Shown piece by piece: positions 2,865 through 60,231 of a stretch of DNA of 64,000 nucleotides. The notes beneath the pieces are model-generated. The model was not told where the DNA came from and did no database searches. It was given only the letters and a program-made list of their open reading frames with translations. Source of the DNA: Nannocystis bainbridge. GTDB taxonomy: Bacteria; Myxococcota_A; Polyangia; Nannocystales; Nannocystaceae. Where the stretch lies: the NCBI RefSeq assembly GCF_028368995.1, contig NZ_JAQNDL010000001.1, positions 3,104,001-3,168,000 of the forward strand, written 5' to 3'. How positions within the stretch are numbered: position 1 is the first letter of the stretch; each line of letters begins with the position of its first letter. Both the position numbers and the translations under genes were made by a program.

Positions 2865-3784
<920 letters not shown>

Positions 3785-8004: not shown

Positions 8005-8060
8005 TGTCCGAACGGACATGGCCTCTTGGACATTACCAAAAAGACATGTCCTCACGGACA
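8005..8060. repeat. Array of four phased 14-bp palindromes (TGTCC-N4-GGACA family)
   Basis: TGTCCGAACGGACA|TGGCCTCTTGGACA|TTACCAAAAAGACA|TGTCCTCACGGACA. Confidence 0.9.
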
Positions 8061-8086: not shown

Positions 8087-9124
8087 TCAGGCGGGCCCGA
8101 CGGTCACGCGGCGGGTGTCGCCGGGCGCGTCGATCACCTCGAACTTCACCGGCAGGAAGCGGCTGACGATGCCCATGTTGGTGATCGTGTGCTGCGTCAG
8201 CGCGTGCGAGCGGAAGCTGCCGCCGCCGGCGAGGGCCAGCGGGATGAGCAGTTGGTCGGCGAGGTGCGGGCCGACGGGCGCGTCGGAGCCGAGGTGTTCG
8301 CCGAGCTCCTTGACCACGCGCGCGGCCACCTGCTCGGCGGAGATCCGCTTCTCGCCGAACGCCGAGAACAGCTCGCTGCCGTGCTCGAACTCGACCGACA
8401 GCAGCAGCGCGTTGCCGGGCCCTGCGCTCTCGACCTCGATCGTGCGCATCTCGGAGCGCTCCCAGCCCAGCAGGTTCTGCACTGCCCGCAGCTCGCGGTC
8501 GGCGATCGACTTCGGCAGGTTGGCGTAGATGGCCCGCGCCTGGCGGCGGATGACCTGGCCGCGCTCGTGCCACTGCAGCGGCTGCAGCGGCTCGCCGCCG
8601 GTGATGGTGGCGGTGAAGCGCCCGCCGCCGGCCGGATAGAAGCCGACGCGCTCGAGGTTGGCCTGCACCTGCGCGCCCATGCGGCGCAGCAGCGGCAGGA
8701 ACACCTCGGCGATGAACTCGAACGGCGGCGCCATCGGGTTGTGCGTCCCGCCCTCGAAGCTCAGCGTCGACGTGCCCGGCGCGTGCAGCAGCGGCCAGAT
8801 CACCGTCTGCAGCACCAGCGTCACGCTGCCGGCGCTGCCGACCGAGAACGCGTACTCGCCGTGCTTGACCGGACCTGGCTGAAAGACCAGCTCCTGCGAA
8901 CCGAGCGCGTCGCCCTGGACCTTGGCCGCGCCGACGCTGGTGGCGGCGCGCACGGCCGTGAGGTGCTGGCGCAGCAGCCCCGGCTTGTGCCGGCGGGCCC
9001 GCAGCTTGATCAGGTGGAAGGGCCGCCCCGTGATGAGCGACAGGGCCAGCGAGGTGCGGAGGATCTGGCCTCCGCCCTCGCCCTCCGAGCCGTCGATCAC
9101 GATCGCGTCCTTCGGCGCCTGCAT
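8087..9124 (-). CDS. rtcA: RNA 3'-terminal phosphate cyclase
   Basis: IDGSEGEGGGQILRTSLALS, GGTHNPMAPP, GFYPAGGG, HLADQL. Confidence 0.95.
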   Translation of the reverse strand: MQAPKDAIVIDGSEGEGGGQILRTSLALSLITGRPFHLIKLRARRHKPGLLRQHLTAVRAATSVGAAKVQGDALGSQELVFQPGPVKHGEYAFSVGSAGSVTLVLQTVIWPLLHAPGTSTLSFEGGTHNPMAPPFEFIAEVFLPLLRRMGAQVQANLERVGFYPAGGGRFTATITGGEPLQPLQWHERGQVIRRQARAIYANLPKSIADRELRAVQNLLGWERSEMRTIEVESAGPGNALLLSVEFEHGSELFSAFGEKRISAEQVAARVVKELGEHLGSDAPVGPHLADQLLIPLALAGGGSFRSHALTQHTITNMGIVSRFLPVKFEVIDAPGDTRRVTVGPA

Positions 9125-15374: not shown

Positions 15375-15565
15375 GTACCTTCAATGCATCACATGTCCAT
15401 TCGGACATACGCAGCATTGAGATCCCACGCGAAGATCCCGCCCGTCACCGGCGACCGCCGGCGTGAACGAATCACGCCGGGCGCCGGCGCTCAGGCGCCG
15501 AAAACCTCGCAGACCGGGTCTGCCACCCGATCAAAGCGTCCTGCAGCTCGCCCGGAGCCGCCGCC

Positions 15566-18597: not shown

Positions 18598-19386
18598 ATG
18601 CCCATCCGCTCGCTCGTCGCCTCCGCCCTGTTCGCCGTGGTCGCCTCGCTCGGCTGCAACTTCATCATGAACCCCGACGGCGACGGGATCTTCCGCTGCG
18701 ACAACGCGGACGACTGCGACGTCCCCCTGGCCGAGCACCTCTCCGACAAGCGCGGGCAGTCGAGCTGCGCCGCGGCCGGCGGCGGCGGCGGCGGCTTCAC
18801 CCAGAGCCAGGACAACAAGGTCTGCAGCATCCTCGACAAAGAGGACGTGAGCTGCAACCCGGCGCCCTACCTCGACGACGACAGCGTCCCGGTCGCCAAG
18901 ACCTACAACGACGCCCTCGACGAGGCCGCCGCGTACTCGTGCGCCCCCGAGCAGTACGGCAGCGCCGGCTGTCCGCCCAACGGCAGCGCCTGCAACGCCG
19001 GCCTGCAGGTCCGCACCTACGAGTCGCTGAGCGGCGACGCCGGCAACCCGGAGCAGACCGAGGTCAAGGTGTGCGCGCCCGAGGGCACCGCCGCCGTGAT
19101 CGGCAACAGCGCCCTGCGCGGCTTCGACGTGCTCGACCAGCACTGCCGCTCGTACTTCTGCGACGAGGACTTCGTGTGCAACCGCGGCAGCGGCACCAGC
19201 AGCGGCTGGCGCTGCGTCCGCTGCGACCCCGACCGCGCCTACGGCAACGGCGGCTGCGGCACCATGTACCTGCAGGGCGCCCCCTCGACGGTCTACACCG
19301 ACCCCAGCAAGTCCTGCGAGAGCGTCGCCGCCGCCGACAAGACCGACTTCGGCCCCGCCGTCCTCGCGCCGCCCCCGGCCCCCTGA
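18598..19386 (+). CDS. Cys-rich lipoprotein
   Basis: MPIRSLVASALFAVVASLGC lipobox; many Cys. Confidence 0.75.
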   Translation: MPIRSLVASALFAVVASLGCNFIMNPDGDGIFRCDNADDCDVPLAEHLSDKRGQSSCAAAGGGGGGFTQSQDNKVCSILDKEDVSCNPAPYLDDDSVPVAKTYNDALDEAAAYSCAPEQYGSAGCPPNGSACNAGLQVRTYESLSGDAGNPEQTEVKVCAPEGTAAVIGNSALRGFDVLDQHCRSYFCDEDFVCNRGSGTSSGWRCVRCDPDRAYGNGGCGTMYLQGAPSTVYTDPSKSCESVAAADKTDFGPAVLAPPPAP

Positions 19387-19403: not shown

Positions 19404-19487
19404 TGTCCCTGCGGACATGCCCCTCCGGGCATGTCCCTGCGAGCATGCCCCCGCGAGCATGTTCCTGCGAACATGTCCCTCCGGACA
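19404..19487. repeat. Array of six phased 14-bp palindromes
   Basis: TGTCCCTGCGGACA|TGCCCCTCCGGGCA|TGTCCCTGCGAGCA|TGCCCCCGCGAGCA|TGTTCCTGCGAACA|TGTCCCTCCGGACA. Confidence 0.92.
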
Positions 19488-19570
19488 TGCCCTTCGCGGC
19501 CCGTCCTGGCGCCCGCTCCGCGCGCCGCGGGCTTCCCGGCACGGACGAGCTCGGCTAGACTCGCCGGTCG

Positions 19571-24585: not shown

Positions 24586-26469
24586 ATGCGACTCCTCGAC
24601 GCCCGCCGGCTGACCGGGGTCAACCTCGACCTCGACGGCCCGGGCGCGATCGCCGAGGTCGAGTTCGAGCCCGGCGACGACCTCGCGCGGGCCCTCGCCG
24701 CCTGGCGGGACGCGGTCGCCCGCGCGGCCGCGCGGCTCGGCTGGCACGCGCCGACGACCGTGCGTCGGTGGGCTGGCGATCACGGCGCGGCTCTGGTGTT
24801 CCCGGCCCCGCCCGACGCGCTCTACGTCGCCGTCGACGTCACCGAGTGGGCCGTCGAGTGCGCCCAGCGGGCGCTGACCGGCGAGCCCCCGCGCGACCTC
24901 GAAGCGCTCCTGCCCGACCTGCTGGCGGCCCGCGAGCGCGAGCGCCTCGCCGTCCTCCCCGAGCTGCAGGCCGCCGCCGCCGCCCGCGGCGTCCCGCTGC
25001 TGCTCGACGACGACAGCCTCTCGCTCGGCGAGGGCGCCAGCTCGCGCACCTGGCCGCGGATCCTCGCGCCCTTGCCCGCGGATGTCCCCTGGGACAGCTT
25101 GCGAGCGATCCCCGTCGCCATCATCACCGGCACCAACGGCAAGACCACCACCGCGCGCCTGCTGGCCCGGATCGCCCGCACCGCCGGCCATGTCCCCGGC
25201 AACACCTCCACCGACGGCCTCGCCGTCGCCGAGCAGGTGGTCGAGACCGGCGACTGGACCGGCCCCGGCGCCGCCCGCATCGTCCTCCGCGACCACCGCG
25301 TCACGCTCGCCGTGCTCGAGGTCGCCCGCGGCGGGATCCTCCGCCGCGGCCTCGCGGTCGACCGCTGCGACGCCGCCTGCATCACCAACGTCGCCGCCGA
25401 CCACCTCGGCGAGCACGGCATCGACGACCTCGCCGCCATGGCCCGCGTCAAGGCCGTGGTCGCCCGCGTGGTCGCTCCCCACGGCCGCGTCATCCTCGGC
25501 GCCGACGCCCCGGCCGGCGTGCCTGCCTCATCGGACATGTCCGAAGCGACCTTGCCGAAAGGCCATGTCCATGCAGACATGCCCCTTCGGACATCCGCGC
25601 CGACGAGCGCCGCGTCTGCCCCTTCGGACAGCGGCAATTTACCTGCTCTTTCAGCCAGCGCTGCCAACCCCCTGCTCGACCTCCCGCCCGAGGCCTTCTC
25701 GGCGCCGGTCGTGTGGTTCTCGCGCGACCCGCAGCACCCGCGCCTGCTGCGTCACCGCGCGGCTGGCGGCGAGGTGTGGTTCGTCTCGCCCGCGGGGACG
25801 CTCACGCGCGGCCGCGGGGCCGAGCCCGACGTCGCCATCGTGCCCGTCGCCGAGCTCCCGTTCTGCTTCGGCGGGGCCGCCACGCACAACGTCGCCAACG
25901 CCCTCGCCGCCGCCGCCCTGGCGACCGCGCTCGGCCTGCCCGACGCCGCCATCGCCGCCGGCCTGCGCAGCTTCGACGACAACCCCGGGCGCGCCCAGTT
26001 GGTCCAGGTCGGCCACGCCAAGCTGTTCCTCGACTTCGCCCACAACCCCGCCGGCATCGCCGGCCTCGCCCCGCTGCTCGGGCAGATCCGCGCCGGCGCG
26101 CGCTTATTGATCAGCCTCGGCATCGCCGGCGACCGCCGCGACGAAGACCTCCGCGACGTCGCCCGCGCCGTCGCCTCGCTGCGCCCCGACCTCGTGCTCA
26201 CCCGCGACCTCGATCACTACCTGCGCGGACGGGCCCCGGGCGAGGTCCCGGGGCTGCTGGAGCGCAACTTCGCCGCGCTCGGGATCGCGTGCGAGCGGAC
26301 CGCGAGCGAGGTCGCGGCGATCCGTCGCGGCCTGGAGTGGGCGCGGCCTGGCGACCTGATCGCGATCCTCGTGCACGTCGACCGCGACGAGGTCTGGGCT
26401 GAACTGCGCGCCCGCGGCGTCGCGACCGCGGCCGATGGAGACCGATCCGGGCGCCCCGGAGCGGCGTAA
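24586..26469 (+). CDS. CphA-related Mur-ligase-domain protein lacking the ATP-grasp domain
   Basis: RRLTGVN CphA-like start, then ITGTNGKTT, EVARGG, NVAADHLG, DFAHNP, GDRRD; no ATP-grasp motifs. Confidence 0.85.
   Translation: MRLLDARRLTGVNLDLDGPGAIAEVEFEPGDDLARALAAWRDAVARAAARLGWHAPTTVRRWAGDHGAALVFPAPPDALYVAVDVTEWAVECAQRALTGEPPRDLEALLPDLLAARERERLAVLPELQAAAAARGVPLLLDDDSLSLGEGASSRTWPRILAPLPADVPWDSLRAIPVAIITGTNGKTTTARLLARIARTAGHVPGNTSTDGLAVAEQVVETGDWTGPGAARIVLRDHRVTLAVLEVARGGILRRGLAVDRCDAACITNVAADHLGEHGIDDLAAMARVKAVVARVVAPHGRVILGADAPAGVPASSDMSEATLPKGHVHADMPLRTSAPTSAASAPSDSGNLPALSASAANPLLDLPPEAFSAPVVWFSRDPQHPRLLRHRAAGGEVWFVSPAGTLTRGRGAEPDVAIVPVAELPFCFGGAATHNVANALAAAALATALGLPDAAIAAGLRSFDDNPGRAQLVQVGHAKLFLDFAHNPAGIAGLAPLLGQIRAGARLLISLGIAGDRRDEDLRDVARAVASLRPDLVLTRDLDHYLRGRAPGEVPGLLERNFAALGIACERTASEVAAIRRGLEWARPGDLIAILVHVDRDEVWAELRARGVATAADGDRSGRPGAA
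25524..25630. repeat. 14-bp palindrome array inside the CDS (five phased units plus one)
   Basis: TGCCTCATCGGACA|TGTCCGAAGCGACC|TTGCCGAAAGGCCA|TGTCCATGCAGACA|TGCCCCTTCGGACA ... TGCCCCTTCGGACA. Confidence 0.85.
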
Positions 26470-26540: not shown

Positions 26541-27137
26541 GTGTCACGGCTGGGCCCAAACTCGCCGCCCGGGCCTTCGGGCCCCGAGCGCAGCGACGGC
26601 GAGCTCCTCGCCGCCATGGCCTCCGGCGACAGTGACGCGCTCGGCGACCTGCACGACCGCTACGCCGGCACCCTGCTGGCCACCGCGATCCGGATCCTCG
26701 GCAGCCGCCGCGAGGCCGAGGACCTCGTGCACGACGTGCTGATGGAGGTCTGGCAGAAGTCCGCCGACTACGACCCCGAGCGGGGCAGCGTGCGCACCTG
26801 GATCCTCATCCGCCTGCGCAGCCGGGCCCTCGACCGCTGCCGCCGGGCCGGTCGCTTCCGCGTCGAGACCCTCGAGGAGCGCGACCTCGACGACCTCGGG
26901 CTCGCCGGCGGCGACGATCCCGGCCACAGCCTCGACCACGAGCGCGTACGCCGCGCACTGCACGAACTGCCGCCCGCACAGCGCCAGGTGCTCGAATTGG
27001 CCTATTTCGAGGGTCTCTCGGCCACCGAGATCGCCGAGCGGCTCGCCGTTCCGGTCGGCACCGTCAAGTCGCGGACCGCTTCCGGCCTCGCCAAGCTGCG
27101 CGCCGCCCTTCATGCTGAAGACAGGGGGGACCGATGA
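26541..27137 (+). CDS. ECF RNA polymerase sigma factor
   Basis: AEDLVHDVLMEVW (region 2), WILIRLRSRALD, LAYFEGLSATEIAERLAVPVGTVKSR (region 4); start uncertain. Confidence 0.9.
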   Translation: MSRLGPNSPPGPSGPERSDGELLAAMASGDSDALGDLHDRYAGTLLATAIRILGSRREAEDLVHDVLMEVWQKSADYDPERGSVRTWILIRLRSRALDRCRRAGRFRVETLEERDLDDLGLAGGDDPGHSLDHERVRRALHELPPAQRQVLELAYFEGLSATEIAERLAVPVGTVKSRTASGLAKLRAALHAEDRGDR

Positions 27138-27763
27138 CCGGCCGCGACCGCGAAGCCCCGCCGCCGGACCCGCGCCACGCGTCCGCGCCGCACGAGGATG
27201 ATCTTCAGGACATGTCCATCAGGACAGGCGATGCTGATGCTGTCGACGGCGCCATCGCCGAGGCGTTCACCGCCCTCTCGCTCGCGCTGAAGCCGGTCCG
27301 CCCGACCGCCGCCATGCGTGCCCGCCTGCTCGCCGCCGTCACCGCGCCCGAGCGCCGCTTCAGCCCCTTCATCGGCCGCCTCGCCCGCCTCCTCGACCTC
27401 GCCGAGGCCCGCGTGCGCGAGCTGCTGGACCGCCTCACCGACCGCGCGGCGTGGGAGAACGTGCTGCCGGACGTCGAGCTGTTCCACCTCGAGGGCGGCC
27501 CGGCCACCGCGGGCGCCGACGTCGGGTTCGTGCGCGTCGCCGCCGGCGCCCGCTTCCCGCACCACAACCACCTCGGCGACGAGCACGTGCTGGTGCTGCA
27601 GGGCGGCTTCGTCGAGGACGACGGCACCGTCGTGCGCGCCGGCGCCAGCTCCCACTGCGGCCCCGGCAGCAGCCACAGCCTCACCGCCCTGCCCGACCAG
27701 GACCTGGTCTACGCCGTCGTCGTGTTCGGCGTCGAGTTCCCCGGCCTGCCGCCGCGGCCCTGA
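27134..27763 (+). CDS. ChrR-like cupin-domain anti-sigma factor
   Basis: ATGA overlap with the sigma gene; PHHNHLGDEHVLVLQG...SSH cupin motif. Confidence 0.8.
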   Translation: MTGRDREAPPPDPRHASAPHEDDLQDMSIRTGDADAVDGAIAEAFTALSLALKPVRPTAAMRARLLAAVTAPERRFSPFIGRLARLLDLAEARVRELLDRLTDRAAWENVLPDVELFHLEGGPATAGADVGFVRVAAGARFPHHNHLGDEHVLVLQGGFVEDDGTVVRAGASSHCGPGSSHSLTALPDQDLVYAVVVFGVEFPGLPPRP

Positions 27764-27769
27764 CTCGCC

Positions 27770-27825
27770 TGCCTCCCGGGACATGTCCGAGTGGACATGC
27801 CCCGAAAGACATGCCCGAAAGCACC
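27770..27825. repeat. Array of four phased 14-bp palindromes
   Basis: TGCCTCCCGGGACA|TGTCCGAGTGGACA|TGCCCCGAAAGACA|TGCCCGAAAGCACC. Confidence 0.88.
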
Positions 27826-33401: not shown

Positions 33402-33546
33402 TGTCCTATGCGACCTGTCGCTTTGGACATGCTTTAAAGGGCATGTCCGAAGCACCAGGATCCTCGAGCTCGCCGAACGGGGCCCGACAGACCAGCCAGC
33501 CCGAGCGAGTCCCCCCGAGCTTCGCTCTCACCTGTCCGCAAGGACA
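33402..33546. repeat. Array of four phased 14-bp palindromes plus a solitary copy
   Basis: TGTCCTATGCGACC|TGTCGCTTTGGACA|TGCTTTAAAGGGCA|TGTCCGAAGCACCA; TGTCCGCAAGGACA at 33533. Confidence 0.8.
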
Positions 33547-35000: not shown

Positions 35001-37481
35001 ATGACCCGCGCCTATGCCTTGCCTTGCACGCTCGTCCTCGCGCTCGCCGGTTGCGGCGACGACGGGCGCCCGGCCGACGACGGCACCGCCACGCTCGCGA
35101 CCTCGACGCCGAACCTGACCGAGCCGACCAGCACCAGCGACGGCTCGACCGCCACCACCGCCCCGACCACCACCGACCCGACCACCACCGGCACCACCAC
35201 CGGCGGTCAGGGCAGCGGCGAGGCCGGCGAGCCGTGTGGCGTCAGCGCGGAGTGCAAGCCCGGCCTCGTGTGCGCCGGCGGCGAGTGTGCCCCGACCGAC
35301 GGCGAGTGTCAGACCGACGACGACTGCAGCGGCGACACCTACTGCTGCGCCGACGGCTGCCTCCCCGTCGGCGAGAGCCCCGCCGTCTGTATCCCGTACG
35401 GCTTCGATCCGAACCAGTGGAGCAACGACGAGTGCGTCGGCGACGTCACCATCGGCCTGTTCGAGCCGGCCGTGCAGTGCGAGTGGGCCGCCCCGCCCGA
35501 CGGCGATCCTTACCCCGGCCACAAGTCGGTGCTCACCACCCCGCTCATCTTCGACCTCCCGCACGGCAGCAACGTCGAGTTCCCGCAGGCCGAGATCGTC
35601 ATCGTCACTTACAACTACACCGACGGCGGCGAGCCGTCCGGCTGGGGCTCCGACCCCAACTACTACGGCGTCATCCGCATCCTCGACGGCACCACCTGCG
35701 CGCTGATCGAGTCGATCGACGACCCCGCCAACCGCATCATCGCCGCCAGCCCGCCGGCGATCGGCGACATCGACGGCGACGGCCTGGCCGAGATCGTCAC
35801 CCACCGCGCCGTGTCCGGCACGATCGCCTTCGGCTGGGACGTCGCCACCAAGAAGTACGTCACCAAGTGGGTCGCCGCCGGCACCGACTTCAGCATGGTC
35901 ACCCGCTGGGACGGCCCCTCGCTGCACGACCTCGACGACGACGGCGTCGCCGAGGTCATCACCGGCAGCGAGGTCTACGACGGCGCCAGCGGCACGCGCC
36001 TCAACCCCGGCCAGGTCGTGCCCGGCGCCGGCGCGGGCCGCTTCTCGGTCATCGGCGACCTCGACCAGGACGGCGCGGCCGAGCTGATCGGCGCCGGCGT
36101 GTGGCGCTGGAACGTCGGCACCAACACCTGGGACATGGCCTGGCCCGGCGACCCCGACGGCGGCGCCCACTACGGCTTCGCCGACTTCGGCACCCCCGGC
36201 GCCGACCCGGCCAGCTTCAACGCCGCCGCGCTCGACGGCCGCGCCGAGATCGTCAGCGTCACCGGCGGCCTGGTCGAGCTCTACACCCTCGAGGGCCAGC
36301 TGATCTTCAGCGCGGTCACGGACCTCGGCAGCGGCGGCCCGCCGACCATCGGTGACTTCGACGCCGACGGCTTCCCCGAGATCGCCAGCGCCGGCGGCAA
36401 GGCCTTCAGCATCTACGACCTCGACTGCAAGGACGGCCTCGCCCCCGGCTGCGTCGCGCCGTGGATCCGCTGGTCGCAGGCGTCGCAGGACCTGTCGTCG
36501 CAGAACACCGGCTCGTCGATCTTCGACTTCGAGGGCGACGGCGCCGCCGAGGCCGTCTACGCCGACGAGTGCTTCCTCCGCGTCTACGCCGGCGCCACCG
36601 GCGAGGTCCTCTACTCGACCTTCCGCACCTCGTGCACCTGGTACGAAAACCCCGTGGTCGGCGACCCCGACTACGACCAGAACACCGAGATCCTGGTCGG
36701 CTCGAACGACAACTGCAGCGTGGTCTGCCCCGACATCGACCCGATCCACCGCGGCCTGCGCTGCGAGACCGGCGAGGAGTGCGGCGCGCCGTTCATCTGC
36801 GACGCCGGCTTCTGCCGCTGCAGCGACGACACCCAGTGCGTCAGCGGCCACGCCTGCACCGAGCCGCTGGCCGGCACCCCGGGCGCCGGCAACGTGTGCC
36901 GCGCCGTCCACCCGCCGGGCGTCGGCCTCACCGGCCTACGTGTCCTTCGGGACAGGCTCGACCGCTGGGCCTCGTCGCGTCCGCTGTGGAACCAGCACGC
37001 CTACTCGGTCACCAACGTCGACGACGACGGCGGCATCCCTGCGATCTCGCAGTGGCAGCCGAACTTCACCCAGCCCGACCTCAACAACTACCGCCAGAAC
37101 CGCCAGGGTGACACGCCGCCGGCCGCCTTGCCCGACATCACCGGCAAGCTCGGCGACCAGAGCTGCATGGGCAAGGACGGCAAGGTGGTCCTGACGAGCA
37201 CCGTCTGCAACCGCGGCAAGAAGGCCGTCGGCGCCAACCTGCCCGCGACCTTCTACCTCGGCGACCCGGCCGACGGCATGGTCCTGTGCGTCGCGTACAC
37301 GTCCGAGCCCGTCCCGGTCGAGGAGTGCCGCGACGTCTCGTGCACCATCGACGACACCGTCGACGGCACCGTCACCGTGGTCGTCGACGACGACGGCCAG
37401 GGCGGCGAGTTCGCCCTCGAGTGCTTCGAGAACAACAACAGCGACGCCATCCAGATCAAGAACTGCAGCCCGGTCGGCTGA
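35001..37481 (+). CDS. FG-GAP/VCBS repeat Cys-rich lipoprotein
   Basis: LAGC lipobox; repeated GDIDGDGLAEI/DLDDDGVAEV/GDFDADGFPEI; WNQHAYSVTN. Confidence 0.85.
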   Translation: MTRAYALPCTLVLALAGCGDDGRPADDGTATLATSTPNLTEPTSTSDGSTATTAPTTTDPTTTGTTTGGQGSGEAGEPCGVSAECKPGLVCAGGECAPTDGECQTDDDCSGDTYCCADGCLPVGESPAVCIPYGFDPNQWSNDECVGDVTIGLFEPAVQCEWAAPPDGDPYPGHKSVLTTPLIFDLPHGSNVEFPQAEIVIVTYNYTDGGEPSGWGSDPNYYGVIRILDGTTCALIESIDDPANRIIAASPPAIGDIDGDGLAEIVTHRAVSGTIAFGWDVATKKYVTKWVAAGTDFSMVTRWDGPSLHDLDDDGVAEVITGSEVYDGASGTRLNPGQVVPGAGAGRFSVIGDLDQDGAAELIGAGVWRWNVGTNTWDMAWPGDPDGGAHYGFADFGTPGADPASFNAAALDGRAEIVSVTGGLVELYTLEGQLIFSAVTDLGSGGPPTIGDFDADGFPEIASAGGKAFSIYDLDCKDGLAPGCVAPWIRWSQASQDLSSQNTGSSIFDFEGDGAAEAVYADECFLRVYAGATGEVLYSTFRTSCTWYENPVVGDPDYDQNTEILVGSNDNCSVVCPDIDPIHRGLRCETGEECGAPFICDAGFCRCSDDTQCVSGHACTEPLAGTPGAGNVCRAVHPPGVGLTGLRVLRDRLDRWASSRPLWNQHAYSVTNVDDDGGIPAISQWQPNFTQPDLNNYRQNRQGDTPPAALPDITGKLGDQSCMGKDGKVVLTSTVCNRGKKAVGANLPATFYLGDPADGMVLCVAYTSEPVPVEECRDVSCTIDDTVDGTVTVVVDDDGQGGEFALECFENNNSDAIQIKNCSPVG

Positions 37482-44718: not shown

Positions 44719-44912
44719 TCGACATGCCCTCCAGGACATGCTCTTGACGACATGTCCTGCAGAGCAGGATCGTATCGACATGCCCTGGAGGACATCGGCG
44801 GCCCGCCAGGCCGGATCGGGACAGGCCGGCGAGCCCTCGAAGGTCACCCGCTCGACGCTCCAGCGTCCGCGTCGACATGTCCCGAAGGCCATATGATATG
44901 TCCCGGCGGACA
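44711..44912. repeat. Array of six phased 14-bp palindromes plus two further copies
   Basis: TGCCCTGATCGACA|TGCCCTCCAGGACA|TGCTCTTGACGACA|TGTCCTGCAGAGCA|GGATCGTATCGACA|TGCCCTGGAGGACA; TGTCCCGAAGGCCA; TGTCCCGGCGGACA. Confidence 0.88.
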
Positions 44913-50993: not shown

Positions 50994-51066
50994 TGGAGGC
51001 GAGGGGGATCGAACCCCTGACCTTCGCGCTGCCAGCGCGACGCTCTCCCAGCTGAGCTACGCCCCC
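50994..51066 (-). tRNA. tRNA-Ala (GGC)
   Basis: GGGGGCGTAGCTCAGCTGGGAGAGCGTCGCGCTGGCAGCGCGAAGGTCAGGGGTTCGATCCCCCTCGCCTCCA; G3:U70; anticodon GGC; CCA not encoded. Confidence 0.97.
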
Positions 51067-51326: not shown

Positions 51327-52025
51327 ATGGATCTCAAGGAACTCTTCGAACAGGGCGGGCCCCTGATGTGGGCCATCTTGGTCGCCTCGATCGTGGGCGT
51401 CGGCATCTTCTTCGAGCGGCTGTGGTCGACCCAGCGGTCCAAGGTGCTGCCCCGGGCCTTCGTCGACCGCATCCGCGCCCTCGTCGCCAAGGGCAAGGTC
51501 AACGAGGCGCTGCTGCTGTGCGAGGAGAACGCCTCGTCGATCGCCCTCGTGATCGCCTCCGCGCTCCGCGCGTTCGAGCACAGCACCACCCGCGCCGACA
51601 TCAAGGAGGCCGTCGAGGAGGTGGGCGCCCGCGAGATCGCCCACATGGACCGCAACGTCGAGATCGTCGGCACCGTCGCCACCATCTCGCCGCTGCTCGG
51701 CCTCCTCGGCACCGTCGTCGGCATGATCCAGGTGTTCCGCAACTTCGTCGAGGCCTACGCCTCCGGCGCGGTCGGCCCTGACACCTTCGCCCAGGGCATC
51801 TGGCAGGCCCTCATCACCACCGCCTACGGCCTCACCGTGGCGATCCCGATGCTGCTCCTCTACCGCGTGCTGCTCGACCGCACCAACAAGCTGGTGCTCG
51901 AGATGGAGGAGGACGCGATGGCGATCGTCAACCTGCTCGAGGACGGTCGGCGCGCCGCCAAGGCCCGCCCTGCCGCCGCGCAGGTGGCCGAGCCCCGGCC
52001 CGCGCCCGCCGAGGTGACCCCGTGA
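51327..52025 (+). CDS. MotA/TolQ/ExbB proton channel
   Basis: SPLLGLLGTVVGMI; GIWQALITTAYGL. Confidence 0.92.
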   Translation: MDLKELFEQGGPLMWAILVASIVGVGIFFERLWSTQRSKVLPRAFVDRIRALVAKGKVNEALLLCEENASSIALVIASALRAFEHSTTRADIKEAVEEVGAREIAHMDRNVEIVGTVATISPLLGLLGTVVGMIQVFRNFVEAYASGAVGPDTFAQGIWQALITTAYGLTVAIPMLLLYRVLLDRTNKLVLEMEEDAMAIVNLLEDGRRAAKARPAAAQVAEPRPAPAEVTP

Positions 52026-52438
52026 ACTTCCGCGGCAAGGCCGGTCGCAAGCGCCCCGGCAGCGGCGGCAACCTGGTCGACCTGACGCCGCTCATCGACG
52101 TCACCTTCCAGCTGCTCATCTTCTTCCTGCTGACCGCGACCTTCAACACCGACAGCGCCTTCAAGGTCAAGCTGCCCAAGGCCTCGAGCAACGAGCCCGC
52201 CAGCGAGGCCAAGGCCATGGTGGTCGAGATCAGCGAGGACGGCCGGTTCGAGGTCGACCGCGTCGTCGTCGACGACCGCGAGCTGCAGATGCGCCTGTGC
52301 AACGCCGCCAAGGACAACAAGGTGTCGACGGTCAACATCAAGGCCGACCAGAACACCCGCCACGAGAAGGTCGTGCAGGCGATGGACGTGGCCAAGCTGT
52401 GCGGCATCGAGAAGCTCGGCATCCTCCACCGCCACTGA
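52022..52438 (+). CDS. ExbD/TolR family protein
   Basis: DLTPLIDVTFQLLIFFLL; IKAD; VVQAMD. Confidence 0.92.
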   Translation: MNFRGKAGRKRPGSGGNLVDLTPLIDVTFQLLIFFLLTATFNTDSAFKVKLPKASSNEPASEAKAMVVEISEDGRFEVDRVVVDDRELQMRLCNAAKDNKVSTVNIKADQNTRHEKVVQAMDVAKLCGIEKLGILHRH

Positions 52439-52590
52439 GCCTTCGGGACATGTCCTCCGGGACATACTAACCCGACAGGCATGGCCCGGGATGTTTGACC
52501 CGACAGACATGTCCCTCGGGACAGCCTGAGCCTAACAGACATGTCCCTCGGGATAGCCTGAGCCCGACGGACCTGTCCTCGCGGCCATCT
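52437..52590. repeat. 14-bp palindromes embedded in about 32-bp tandem units
   Basis: TGTCCCTCGGGA(C/T)AGCCTGAGCC(T/C)(A/G)AC(A/G)GAC(A/C) twice, plus degenerate flanking copies. Confidence 0.82.
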
Positions 52591-55917: not shown

Positions 55918-56826
55918 TCACCGCAGCGTGATGCGCACCGGGCAGTGGTCGGACACCGTGGGCAGCTTCGCCGGCTCCGCCGTCTGGACCGCGCACCCCA
56001 GCGCCGCGCACATGCCCAGGACCTCGGGTGTCCCGAAGGACAGGTCCTTCCCGCCGAGGAAATGATCGAGCAGGCTCGCCTCCCAGCGCCGCACCTTCGA
56101 CTTCGGCCGCCAGTACTCCGTGCAGCCGAGCACTCCGGTCGGCAGCTGCAGCCCCTCGCGCTCGACCATGCCGTCGATGAAGCGCCGCTCCTCGTCCTCC
56201 GCCTCGAGGTAGCCCGTCGTGTTGAAGTCGCCCGCGACCACGACCTCGCCGCCGAACTCCTCGCGCAGCCGCGGCAGGATCGACGACAGCCACTGCCACT
56301 GCTGCTTGCGCCGGGCCCACCGCTCCGGCTTGCCGCCCGAATCGAAGTGCACCGACACCAGCGCCAGCGTCCGCCCCCTGGCCGTGCGCAGCGAGGTCAG
56401 CGACGCCGGCGCCTGTCCCAGAGGACATTTTTCGCCCTCGCTGAGCGGCCGGTGCTCCTTCAGCTCGAGCCGCGCCGCGTCGTACACCACCCCGACGTGC
56501 AGCCGCCCCTTGCTGTTGCCGCGGCACGACGCCGTCAACGCCGCCCCGTAGCGCCGCCCCGTCAGCGCGTTCGCCCGGTCCAGCACCGCAAACAGCCGCG
56601 CGGGCTCGCGGATCTCCTGCACCGCGAACGCGTCCGCGTTCAGCTCGGCGATCGCCGCCGCGACCTCCTCCGGATCGGTCTTCTTGTCCGGGAACGTCCG
56701 GATATTAAAAGTCCCGAGCACCAGCGGCGCCTCGCGGCGGTACCACAACAGCAGCAGCGCGATCGCCACCAGCAGCGCCCACGGCCACACCCGGCGACGA
56801 CGGCGACGACGACGGCGCTCCTGCAT
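55918..56826 (-). CDS. Endonuclease/exonuclease/phosphatase family protein
   Basis: GTFNI, AVQEI, VSVH, AGDFN, LDH, SDHCPV; N-terminal TM. Confidence 0.88.
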   Translation of the reverse strand: MQERRRRRRRRRVWPWALLVAIALLLLWYRREAPLVLGTFNIRTFPDKKTDPEEVAAAIAELNADAFAVQEIREPARLFAVLDRANALTGRRYGAALTASCRGNSKGRLHVGVVYDAARLELKEHRPLSEGEKCPLGQAPASLTSLRTARGRTLALVSVHFDSGGKPERWARRKQQWQWLSSILPRLREEFGGEVVVAGDFNTTGYLEAEDEERRFIDGMVEREGLQLPTGVLGCTEYWRPKSKVRRWEASLLDHFLGGKDLSFGTPEVLGMCAALGCAVQTAEPAKLPTVSDHCPVRITLR

Positions 56827-59207: not shown

Positions 59208-60158
59208 TCAGGCGGGGATCACGCAGACCCCGACATCCTCATAGTTGGGCGGTGCCATGCCCATCTCGAAGAACGGCGTGCACTCCTCGCCCGTCTGGCA
59301 CGGCCCGTTGCCGCCGCTGACCGGGCAGAACGGAGTGCAGCAGCCGGTCGACATCGGCGGGCAATTGGCGACCGCGGCCGTGGCCGCGCAGAAGCCGCCC
59401 TTCTGACATTGATTGATGTACTGGCACTCGTCGCCCGGCCCGCCCTCGCCGGCCATCGCCGACTCCTTGAAGCACACGAACAGGTCGCCGGCCGAGTTGT
59501 AACAGCCCTGTCCTTCGGGACAGTCCTGCACGAGCGGGTCGCACGAGCCGAGGCAGATCGGCAGCGAGCCGTCGTTGTAGACCACGCAGTTGGCCGTCGG
59601 CGTGTCGGGGCAATTGTCGTTGGCGTCGCAGAACTCGACGCACACCCCGCCCTTGCCCTCCTCGTCGGTCAGCAGGCAGATGTTGCCGAGCGCGCAATTG
59701 TCGACGCCGGTGTACTTGCCGTCCACGACGTCGCACGGGTCGCCGACCACGCCCTCGCCGCCGATCTCGACGCAGGTGTTGACGCCCCACGGCTCGCCCT
59801 CGGCCGGCGCGACCGCCGTGCACTTCTGTCCTTCGGGACAGTCCTGCGCCCGCGGGTCGCACTGGCCGCTGATCCCGCCGTCGGGCGGGACGATGAAGCC
59901 CGCGCTGGTGCCGGTCCCGGCCTCGGAGGTGCTGGTCGGATTCGTCGGCCCACCGCTGGCGCTGGTGCCGCTGTCGGTCCCGTCCGTGGTCGAGGTCGCT
60001 CCGGGCTCCGTCGTCTCCGGATCCTCGCCGTCGTCCTGGTCGTCGGGATTGCTGGTCGGGCCAGACGCGCTCGTCGCGGTCATCATCCCGGACTTGTCGC
60101 CACACGCGCCCAAAGCGACCACGGCGGCGGATACGAACCAGAGTTGAAGCGATCTCAT
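59208..60158 (-). CDS. Cys-rich repeat lipoprotein
   Basis: LGAC lipobox, Thr/Ser linker, repeated CDPxxQDCPEGQxC. Confidence 0.8.
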   Translation of the reverse strand: MRSLQLWFVSAAVVALGACGDKSGMMTATSASGPTSNPDDQDDGEDPETTEPGATSTTDGTDSGTSASGGPTNPTSTSEAGTGTSAGFIVPPDGGISGQCDPRAQDCPEGQKCTAVAPAEGEPWGVNTCVEIGGEGVVGDPCDVVDGKYTGVDNCALGNICLLTDEEGKGGVCVEFCDANDNCPDTPTANCVVYNDGSLPICLGSCDPLVQDCPEGQGCYNSAGDLFVCFKESAMAGEGGPGDECQYINQCQKGGFCAATAAVANCPPMSTGCCTPFCPVSGGNGPCQTGEECTPFFEMGMAPPNYEDVGVCVIPA

Positions 60159-60231
60159 GAGCGGGCCTCCAGTCGGGCACGCTATCACAGAAAGCAGCAA
60201 AAGCTCGAAACCTCCCGGGAGGATCGGAGGT

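Follow-up and report, generated by a model that had tools for sequence, protein, structure and literature searches.

Rickettsia palindromic elements (RPEs) are palindromic repeats in protein-coding genes of unrelated function; they are insertions of 100-150 bp that add a peptide segment. Repetitive extragenic palindromic (REP) elements carry a conserved GTAG-type tetranucleotide head beside a hairpin. The uptake signal sequence (USS) of Pasteurellaceae and the DNA uptake sequence (DUS) of Neisseria raise the frequency of their encoded peptides about twofold and do not occur in genes that lack homologues, and 34.5% of the Neisseria DUS copies lie in open reading frames (ORFs) (PMC2817400). The cyanobacterial highly iterated palindrome HIP1 (GCGATCGC) is described in PMC5861425 as 15-300-fold over-represented and as conserved within and between ORFs. 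Its function was long obscure (PMC5861425, PMC4390886), and it has lately been linked to transformation (PMC13756078; 10.1101/2024.09.10.611283). In this study, we characterized a split palindrome, TGTCC-N4-GGACA, in a 64-kb stretch of Nannocystis bainbridge DNA (hereafter the window; contig C1, positions 3104001-3168000) and in the whole genome to which it belongs (11.05 Mb in five contigs, 71-72% G+C).

TGTCC-N4-GGACA occurs 1987 times in this genome. The same half-sites at other distances were rare, with 6, 0, 8 and 16 copies for spacers N0 to N3 and 5, 3, 2, 2, 7, 11, 6 and 5 copies for N5 to N12, an excess of more than 100-fold for N4. The window alone holds 19 perfect sites, eight of them genic and 11 intergenic by our own gene calls, against 0.01 expected from 100 dinucleotide-preserving shuffles (largest shuffle count, 1). 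When all inverted pairs of 5-mers were scanned at spacers of 0-10 in 1.5 Mb, the TGTCC-N4-GGACA family ranked top, and its outward extensions ATGTC-N6-GACAT, CATGT-N8-ACATG and ACATG-N10-CATGT stood at the top as well. The profile of the sites widens the word to R-C-M-TGTCC-Y-N-N-R-GGACA-K-G-Y, which is symmetric and roughly 20 bp long. The spacer is variable, 189 of the 256 possible N4 sequences being present among the sites. One-mismatch sites number 4258, and the tolerance for mismatches is strongly position-dependent: G at position 2 and its mirror C are nearly invariant (29 and 21 near-sites), any base is accepted at the middle T/A of the half-site (946 and 943 near-sites), and inner C>T near-sites are frequent (407 with TGTCT, 461 with AGACA).

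The abundance of the word is restricted to one lineage. Ten other Nannocystis genomes contain 114-2090 copies of the core motif, with 1-6 copies of reversed-pattern controls, and two other genera of the family contain 87 and 161; six further genera have 3-5 copies and twelve genomes of other families 0-7. The family survey used the stricter 16-bp form ATGTCC-N4-GGACAT over 73 genomes, for which controls gave 0-1 copies. This form was present in all 11 Nannocystis genomes (16-652 copies), in all five genomes of a second genus, g2 (22-34 copies), and in all seven of a third, g4 (11-102 copies); among 50 genomes of 14 other genera, 12 had one copy and 38 had none. In sum, the motif abounds in all 23 genomes of these three genera of the family and is no more frequent than chance predicts in the 50 genomes of the other 14. 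With its thousands of copies and genus-level 'dialects', it resembles DUS and USS.

A first-pass annotation of the window had drawn attention to the motif in a minus-strand cysteine-rich lipoprotein gene, describing both CPEGQ repeats of the protein as spelled TGT CCC GAA GGA CAG with codons that are rare in that gene. This description is exact. The plus strand reads TGTCCTTCGGGACA at both places, and the minus-strand codons are identical. The gene uses TGC 22 times and TGT four times, GAG 18 times and GAA twice, and GGC, GGG, GGA and GGT 32, 8, 3 and 1 times, respectively, with a G+C fraction at third codon positions (GC3) of 0.921; the two motif copies hold both GAA codons, two of the three GGA codons and two of the four TGT codons. 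Further examples listed in the same annotation fared unevenly: the sites at 36941, 56029 and 56414 are perfect and genic, like the two lipoprotein copies at 59509 and 59827, whereas those at 3177, 1370 and 53492 are not perfect. At 3177, an ABC-ATPase gene contains a site with one mismatch (TGTCC-CCAG-AGACA); the example at 1370 is a symmetric variant (TGTCT-N4-AGACA) outside our own gene call, and 53492 has the right half-site only. The genic copies sit in genes as different as an EEP nuclease/phosphatase, an FG-GAP repeat protein, a Mur-ligase-like protein, a ChrR-cupin protein and the lipoprotein, and their half-sites are conserved, which supports the proposal that the motif is maintained at the DNA level regardless of gene function.

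Genome-wide, genes were called with a crude caller of our own based on the codon log-likelihood of ORFs, which returned 7990 genes covering 82% of the genome. By these calls, 728 sites lie in genes, 1245 outside and 14 across a boundary. Genic sites are evenly distributed along genes, their median local GC3 is 0.93, and 498 of them are set 90 nt or more into genes that are long and score well. Altogether, 20-37% of the sites are coding and about 62% non-coding; the upper figure of 37% is close to the share of copies in ORFs given for Neisseria DUS. Shuffling of synonymous codons within genes (10 runs) left only 16-25 sites of the 728 observed, and in-frame controls with other spacers gave 0 (N1), 2 (N7) and 5 (N10) sites in coding sequence.

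The comparison of motif-forming codon usage with expectation over all compatible peptide contexts, suggested in the first-pass annotation, gave a large excess in every reading frame. In high-confidence coding sequence, the motif encodes 47 of 103 contexts in the frame TGT CCN NNN GGA CAN (CPxG[HQ]; 0.15 expected), 178 of 387 in NTG TCC NNN NGG ACA ([LMV]Sx[WRG]T; 0.14 expected) and 297 of 855 in NNT GTC CNN NNG GAC ANN (6.6 expected). Thus, 35-46% of the compatible contexts carry the motif, 45- to 1300-fold over the expectation from codon usage, in a genome where TGT makes up 0.082 of cysteine, GGA 0.018 of glycine and ACA 0.016 of threonine codons. The spacer is affected too: in the first frame its proline codon is CCC in 32, CCT in 11, CCA in one and CCG in three cases (n = 47), although CCG accounts for 0.654 of proline codons in the genome, and GAA provides 13 of 22 spacer glutamate codons against 0.066 in the genome. 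The symmetric spacer preference extends to synonymous positions. Since more than one third of the compatible peptides are motif copies, the motif appears to raise the frequency of these peptides themselves, an effect also reported for uptake sequences (PMC2817400). Motif-rich genes encode long proteins rich in repeats or linkers, including HEAT, kinase-WD40 and TPR proteins, an extended ScpA-domain protein and a UvrD-like helicase. These results support the conclusion that the motif in genes is a DNA-level feature and not a by-product of peptide or codon usage. Genic copies of DUS and USS likewise arise by substitution in the cheapest reading frames.

The lipoprotein gives a local view of the same distinction. 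The CPEGQ peptide is kept across the lipoprotein family and across genera, and the TGT..GGA spelling is not; a Plesiocystis record, for example, spells it TGC CCC GAG GGG CAA. Both sites are retained in the four Nannocystis relatives that aligned in the correct orientation. Five orthologous loci share the motif spelling, and a more distant congener retains one of the two sites (TGT CCC GAT GGA CAG). Among lipoprotein-family CPxG[QH] contexts, 31 of 72 are motif-spelled in Nannocystis isolate records, 0 of 5 in Nannocystis-titled metagenome-assembled genomes, and 5 of 39 in otherwise titled records, whose usual spelling is TGC...GGC/GGG. The protein belongs to a large cysteine-rich paralogue family of Nannocystaceae with many copies per genome.

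Sites in genes turn over by point substitution. In 400-kb syntenic blocks of four congeners, which are ~90% identical to this genome and 92-96% to one another, 57 site positions could be aligned in all five genomes, 38 of them coding. Fourteen of these 38 are perfect in all five genomes and 24 are variable, and 20 of the 24 variable sites differ by substitutions only, as the first-pass annotation had anticipated. Its further claim, that rare synonymous codons supply the site, stood for a minority: five of these 20 sites are purely synonymous at the core bases (GGA/GGC, GTC/GTT, TGT/TGC, AGG/AGA), whereas 15 include an amino-acid change, such as CCA>ACA (Pro>Thr, seen in this genome alone), GCC>TCC (Ala>Ser) or TCA>ACA (Ser>Thr). 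At some gained or lost sites, four of the ten core bases differ within 14 bp. Within the window, two relatives carry synonymous TGC/GGG variants that break the EEP site at 56414, and the site at 27213 is present only in this genome among the five, the other four reading ATG CCC CTT TGG GCA. RPEs differ in this respect: the Nannocystis word, 14-20 bp long, is created where it stands by point substitutions that leave the length unchanged. A mobile micro-element with target-site duplication was also rejected: the flanks are inverted-complementary, not direct repeats, and coding sites show no indels against their orthologues.

The half-sites are conserved beyond background. The ten core bases are all unchanged in 72-80% of coding sites, compared with 48-49% of control 14-mers matched for frame (p = 0.002-0.026 for each relative, the relatives being non-independent). 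Conservation of the spacer in coding sites is at background (67-80% vs 75%), and their flanks are slightly less conserved than the coding average, e.g., 0.887 vs 0.912. In intergenic sites, half-site identity is 0.92-1.0 and flank identity 0.67-0.92.

What the first reading of the window missed is that coding copies are a minority: 1245 of the 1987 sites lie outside genes, mostly just 3' of them, and there are approximately 800 arrays. Site density is 1.48 per kb between convergent genes, 0.56-0.66 in tandem and 0.22 in divergent intergenic regions, and 0.08 in coding sequence; overall, the motif is 8-fold denser outside genes. In tandem intergenic spacers, sites lean towards the upstream stop codon (235, 149, 122, 87 and 53 by quintile). 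A site falls in the 200 nt following the stop codon in 12.9% of genes, and in the 200 nt preceding the start in 4.4%. This enrichment downstream of genes is another likeness to DUS and USS. A regulon of transcription-factor operators does not fit, given that sites are rarer upstream than after the stop codon and that divergent regions have the lowest intergenic density.

Non-coding copies are also clustered. There are 353 pairs of neighbours closer than 100 bp, and their spacings peak at 14, 28, 42 and 56 bp. GGACATGTCC, itself a palindrome, occurs 956 times against 9.5 expected; literature matches for this sequence were p53 papers and primers only. CATG repeated at a 14-bp period forms 801 runs of at least three units (maximum 12, mostly 3-7), while the control periods of 12, 13, 15 and 16 bp gave 8, 1, 3 and 0 such runs. 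The array unit is GGRCATGYCC followed by four free bases; arrays have no shared flanks and often start directly after a stop codon. In the window, such arrays occupy 19404-19490 and 52440-52580. At 14 bp per unit, successive units would face directions ~120 degrees apart on the helix.

We propose, with a probability of roughly 55%, that TGTCC-N4-GGACA is the core of a symmetric word of ~20 bp that is read on double-stranded DNA, putatively by a dimeric protein, and is kept by selection or drive in the manner of DUS/USS or HIP1. The descriptive part of this account, which comprises abundance, spacing, lineage, imprint, turnover and half-site conservation, we hold with high confidence. Selection, or a drive that reinforces itself, would uphold the copy number genome-wide, as has been proposed for the neisserial DUS, the Pasteurellaceae USS and the cyanobacterial HIP1. 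The word may serve in DNA uptake or self-recognition, in managing the nucleoid or its topology, or at 3' ends. Copies would pile up where the sequence tolerates them, mostly in DNA under the weakest constraint, downstream of genes and between convergent ones, where they could also extend into arrays of 14-bp period. Genic copies, which are fewer, would arise one point substitution at a time through rare codons (TGT, GGA, ACA, GGG, xxT), using the cheapest reading frames and often at the cost of an amino-acid change. HIP1 is likewise a hyper-abundant palindrome in coding and non-coding DNA, lineage-restricted and conserved beyond neutral expectation. It differs in being an uninterrupted 8-mer associated with orphan methylases whose targets are GATC and CGATCG, whereas the Nannocystis word has 10-16 specified bases split by a spacer, is much denser outside genes and forms arrays. 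A search of this genome for a HIP1-like cognate methylase, which covered C5 enzymes, found no C5-methylase (PF00145).

Reading by a protein on double-stranded DNA is favoured over a hairpin by the internal structure of the sites. The spacer ends prefer Y in the first and R in the last position without pairing (C..A 346, C..G 343, T..G 319, T..A 171). The R-C-M / K-G-Y flanks covary weakly: Watson-Crick pairs number 1066 at the first flank position (899 expected), and no covariation is seen further out. Among sense-strand near-sites in 3866 co-directional intergenic regions, G.U-compatible mismatches were as common as C.A ones (332 vs 290, p = 0.10; both are transitions), and the orientation of the spacer relative to transcription shows no clear bias. 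An intrinsic terminator does not fit for the lack of a T-run, the downstream T fraction beyond the K-G-Y flank being 0.08-0.30 at 657 sense-oriented sites, even though hairpin potential is present. Symmetric preferences without covariation, an operator-like profile and the lack of both wobble bias and T-run together point to a double-stranded target. Rfam at gathering thresholds identified no RNA family at the motif anywhere in the window, the sole match being a tRNA at 50994-51066 on the minus strand.

Several observations weigh against this proposal. Both the dimeric reader and the preference for selection or drive over mutation bias are inferred. The lone half-site TGTCC is near expectation (12351 copies vs ~10250 expected), whereas uptake words act singly; DUS and USS are asymmetric single 9-12-mers, and the Nannocystis word is palindromic and bipartite, its halves strictly 4 bp apart. 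No tandem 14-bp arrays are known from DUS, USS or HIP1. A strict local coding test, which required 3-periodic GC together with an uninterrupted frame across ±90 nt (sensitivity 0.89; false-positive rate 0.064), was passed by only 389 of the 728 in-gene sites and by 27 of the 1259 others, and the two densest 'intergenic' clusters sit in long low-complexity ORFs that our caller had split. In a 365-kb aligned block, the motif was not depleted from non-core genes (0.094 sites/kb vs 0.089 in core genes), a comparison without power because the non-core class contains only two sites. Finally, non-coding copies are predicted to fold strongly, at -19.1 kcal/mol for a single 31-nt unit and -44.2 kcal/mol for an array (z = -5.5 in both cases), while coding copies fold less well (z = -1.3 to -3.3). 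Given these predicted hairpins and their REP- and terminator-like placement, the non-coding copies may have a structural role, in single-stranded form or as RNA.

The placement is also what a system like REPs or bacterial interspersed mosaic elements (BIMEs) would produce, in which the non-coding copies would be real 3' hairpins or arrays that end or stabilise transcripts, or bind gyrase as E. coli REPs do, and would have been spread by a transposase or slippage, leaving the coding copies as a by-product. Like the motif, REPs and BIMEs are short palindromes able to form hairpins; they number hundreds to thousands, and they cluster downstream of genes and where convergent genes meet. The 3' bias, the enrichment between convergent genes, the clustered neighbour pairs, the ~800 arrays of at least three units and the strong predicted folds all fit. 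Nevertheless, we consider this origin unlikely. The REP-associated tyrosine transposase RAYT (Y1 HUH transposase, PF01797) was found in 0 of 11 Nannocystis genomes and in 0 of 1 genome of genus g2, by a search that matched 6 of 14 control genomes and 5 of 21 searched genomes (none of them Nannocystis). The flank profile is the symmetric R-C-M / K-G-Y without any GTAG-type head, no flanks are shared, and the loops are free while the stems are fixed; the sites have 189 different spacers, no downstream T-run and no sense-strand wobble bias. Nor is the placement strictly extragenic, as it is for REPs: called genes hold 728 of the 1987 sites and stringently coding sequence 389-498, and at least 20-37% of copies are genic and have arisen by substitution. 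A by-product cannot yield a 45- to 1300-fold coding excess from substitutions, nor the extra conservation there. The claim of the first-pass annotation that the motif is not a purely mobile repeat is borne out by the spacer variety, the unshared flanks and the lack of Y1/RAYT genes. That the encoded peptides, CPEGQ among them, are what is selected and the codons are incidental can practically be dismissed: CPEGQ is conserved in the lipoprotein family far beyond the genus, but its motif spelling falls from 31 of 72 to 5 of 39 contexts outside Nannocystis isolate records, the excess spans three frames and hundreds of unrelated peptides, and synonymous shuffling abolishes it.

Two further alternatives, both of which we regard as improbable, would place the cause in an enzyme acting on the site. 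The first-pass annotation had offered selection and a site-directed mutational or repair bias side by side, and either may hold. Under a bias resembling very short patch (VSP) repair, an enzyme would turn near-sites into sites with no need for selective value; many sites are indeed one substitution away from their orthologue, near-sites are plentiful (4258 with one mismatch), and coding and intergenic densities co-vary regionally (rho = 0.45). However, Vsr (PF03852) was found in one of 11 Nannocystis genomes and C5-methylase (PF00145) in three of 11, in neither case in this one, and the distribution of the methylase over the 73 genomes is unrelated to the motif; since both are absent from the search results of this genome, classical repair bias is unlikely. 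Furthermore, the commonest near-sites (TGTCT, AGACA) are the C>T products that VSP-type repair should remove, and the 10-16 specified bases plus spacer are, to our knowledge, far longer than any known VSP site. Alternatively, the word might be cut by a symmetric enzyme, either a nuclease or a type IIA topoisomerase, that leaves a 4-base stagger, with the half-sites as contacts and the central four bases as the overhang. The exact 4-bp spacing and symmetric arms would suit such an enzyme, as would the highest density being found between convergent genes, where positive supercoils accumulate. The spacer itself offers an argument: among non-coding sites perfect in both genomes of a pair, spacer bases differed more often than the intergenic background of 0.09-0.18, namely 8/40 (closest pair, background 0.09), 12/36 (0.13), 10/28 (0.14), 9/24 (0.175) and 12/28 (0.18), with p = 0.0014-0.026 from small, overlapping sets of 6-10 sites per pair. 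Several sites with unique flanks, chosen by eye, show the same excess. Such fast change could be imitated by gain and loss of array units, it could reflect a neutral spacer in alignable intergenic DNA that is itself constrained, or it could mark a true hotspot at the centre, a staggered-cut or distortion site. Staggered cutting alone does not explain the tandem 14-bp arrays. In the block C1:2.9-3.4 Mb, spacers of non-coding copies change two to three times faster than their alignable intergenic surroundings while the half-sites are fixed, in a small sample.

A more far-reaching version of double-stranded recognition is tentative, and we think it rather doubtful: a dimeric protein may read the bipartite 14-20-bp palindrome as part of an undescribed genome-signature system of Nannocystis and two sister genera, one that rewrites codons and amino acids in hundreds of unrelated proteins, builds ~800 arrays at gene ends and, as the fast-changing 4 bp hint, has its centre cut or distorted, serving as a self-recognition, uptake or topology device. 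Our literature search, whose coverage excluded subscription journals, returned no description of TGTCC-N4-GGACA in Nannocystis or other myxobacteria.

The coordinates of the sites and genes in the window are collected in the table below.

Table. Perfect motif sites and related features of the window (window coordinates; gene calls by our own caller).
Feature	Position	Gene or setting (strand)	Reading or remark
Cys-rich lipoprotein gene, no Pfam family	59211-60086 (own call; ORF 59208-60200)	(-)	
Motif copy 1, TGTCC-TTCG-GGACA	59509-59522	lipoprotein gene (-)	first CPEGQ
Motif copy 2	59827-59840	lipoprotein gene (-)	second CPEGQ, identical codons
Motif	56029-56042	Exo_endo_phos (EEP) gene 55921-56790 (-)	CTG TCC TTC GGG ACA (LSFGT)
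Motif, second in the same gene	56414-56427	EEP gene 55921-56790 (-)	TGT CCT CTG GGA CAG (CPLGQ)
Motif	36941-36954	FG-GAP repeat protein gene 35001-37478 (+)	CGT GTC CTT CGG GAC AGG
Motif	25083-25096	Mur-ligase-like gene 24586-26466 (+)	GAT GTC CCC TGG GAC AGC
Motif	27213-27226	ChrR-cupin gene 27134-27760 (+)	ATG TCC ATC AGG ACA
Motif	383-396	long gene running off window start (-)	TGT CCC TCG GGA CAT (CPSGH)
Non-coding array	19404-19490	21 nt past stop of gene 18598-19383	six CATG cores, 14-bp period (GGRCATGYCC+N4), two perfect motifs
Non-coding cluster	52451-52523	16 nt past stop of gene 52022-52435	two perfect copies, degenerate ones beyond
Two perfect copies, 42 bp apart	8005-8060	30 nt downstream of stop of gene 8090-9124 (-)	
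Intergenic copy	27784-27797	convergent genes, 24 nt past a stop	predicted hairpin, -19 kcal/mol
Intergenic copy	33533-33546	convergent genes	
Intergenic copy	44899-44912	convergent genes	ATGATATGTCC-CGGC-GGACATATCAT, 26-bp palindrome except central CGGC
Intergenic copy	15394-15407	between two genes (both -)	
Intergenic copy	1586-1599	divergent region	ACATGTCC-CCGA-GGACATGT

The motif is unevenly distributed over the genome. Its density ranges from 2 to 43 copies per 100 kb and rises with G+C (rho = 0.44), and regional densities in coding and non-coding DNA co-vary, as given above. Over its 200 kb, the region C1:1100000-1300000 has four copies, where the genome average predicts ~36; its G+C is lowered to 0.686-0.692 and coverage by the codon model is poor. 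A 20-kb sample of this region is non-syntenic in nine of ten congeners, and one congener matches 10 kb of it at 94%, which suggests that the motif-poor region is recently moved DNA. The range of densities with its G+C trend, the co-variation and the mostly non-syntenic state of the poorest region are consistent with slow accumulation of the motif in resident DNA. Scarcity in at least one non-syntenic region is also a likeness to DUS and USS.

Individual genes and a related genome provided additional observations. The gene C3:1270033-1273215 (+) contains six perfect motif copies and encodes a protein of 1061 amino acids in which the ScpA (SMC kleisin) domain occupies residues 43-248 only and which has a very long extension. 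Two ORFs, C5:657329-661411 (+) and C2:1216680-1219196 (-), contain regions of proline-rich low-complexity repeats with the motif in each repeat, for example CCT GTC CCC GAG GAC AGC (PVPEDS), and a 42-bp repeat in the latter ORF; as these regions were left uncalled, the count of 'intergenic' sites is inflated. In 200 kb of one genus g2 genome (62% G+C), the top palindromic pair of 5-mers was TTGCA-N2-TGCAA, with 10 copies against 0.08 expected, which may be a separate, weaker iterated word.

Hyper-abundant short words such as DUS, USS, HIP1, Chi and REP are rare, and each of them has exposed some DNA-handling machinery. If the more far-reaching version were true, myxobacteria would gain their first system of this kind, and a split palindromic word would be seen in one for the first time. 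Its sharp phyletic boundary, with 23 genomes on one side and 50 on the other, means that a reader protein would be findable by phylogenetic profiling or pull-down. For annotation, the DNA itself can dictate rare-codon clusters in these genomes as well as peptides like [LM]SxGT, PVPEDS and CPxGQ, and both should be read with caution. The phenomenon would extend to the myxobacteria, whose large genomes are rich in natural-product genes, and a motif that governs uptake, recombination or stability there would help their genetic manipulation.

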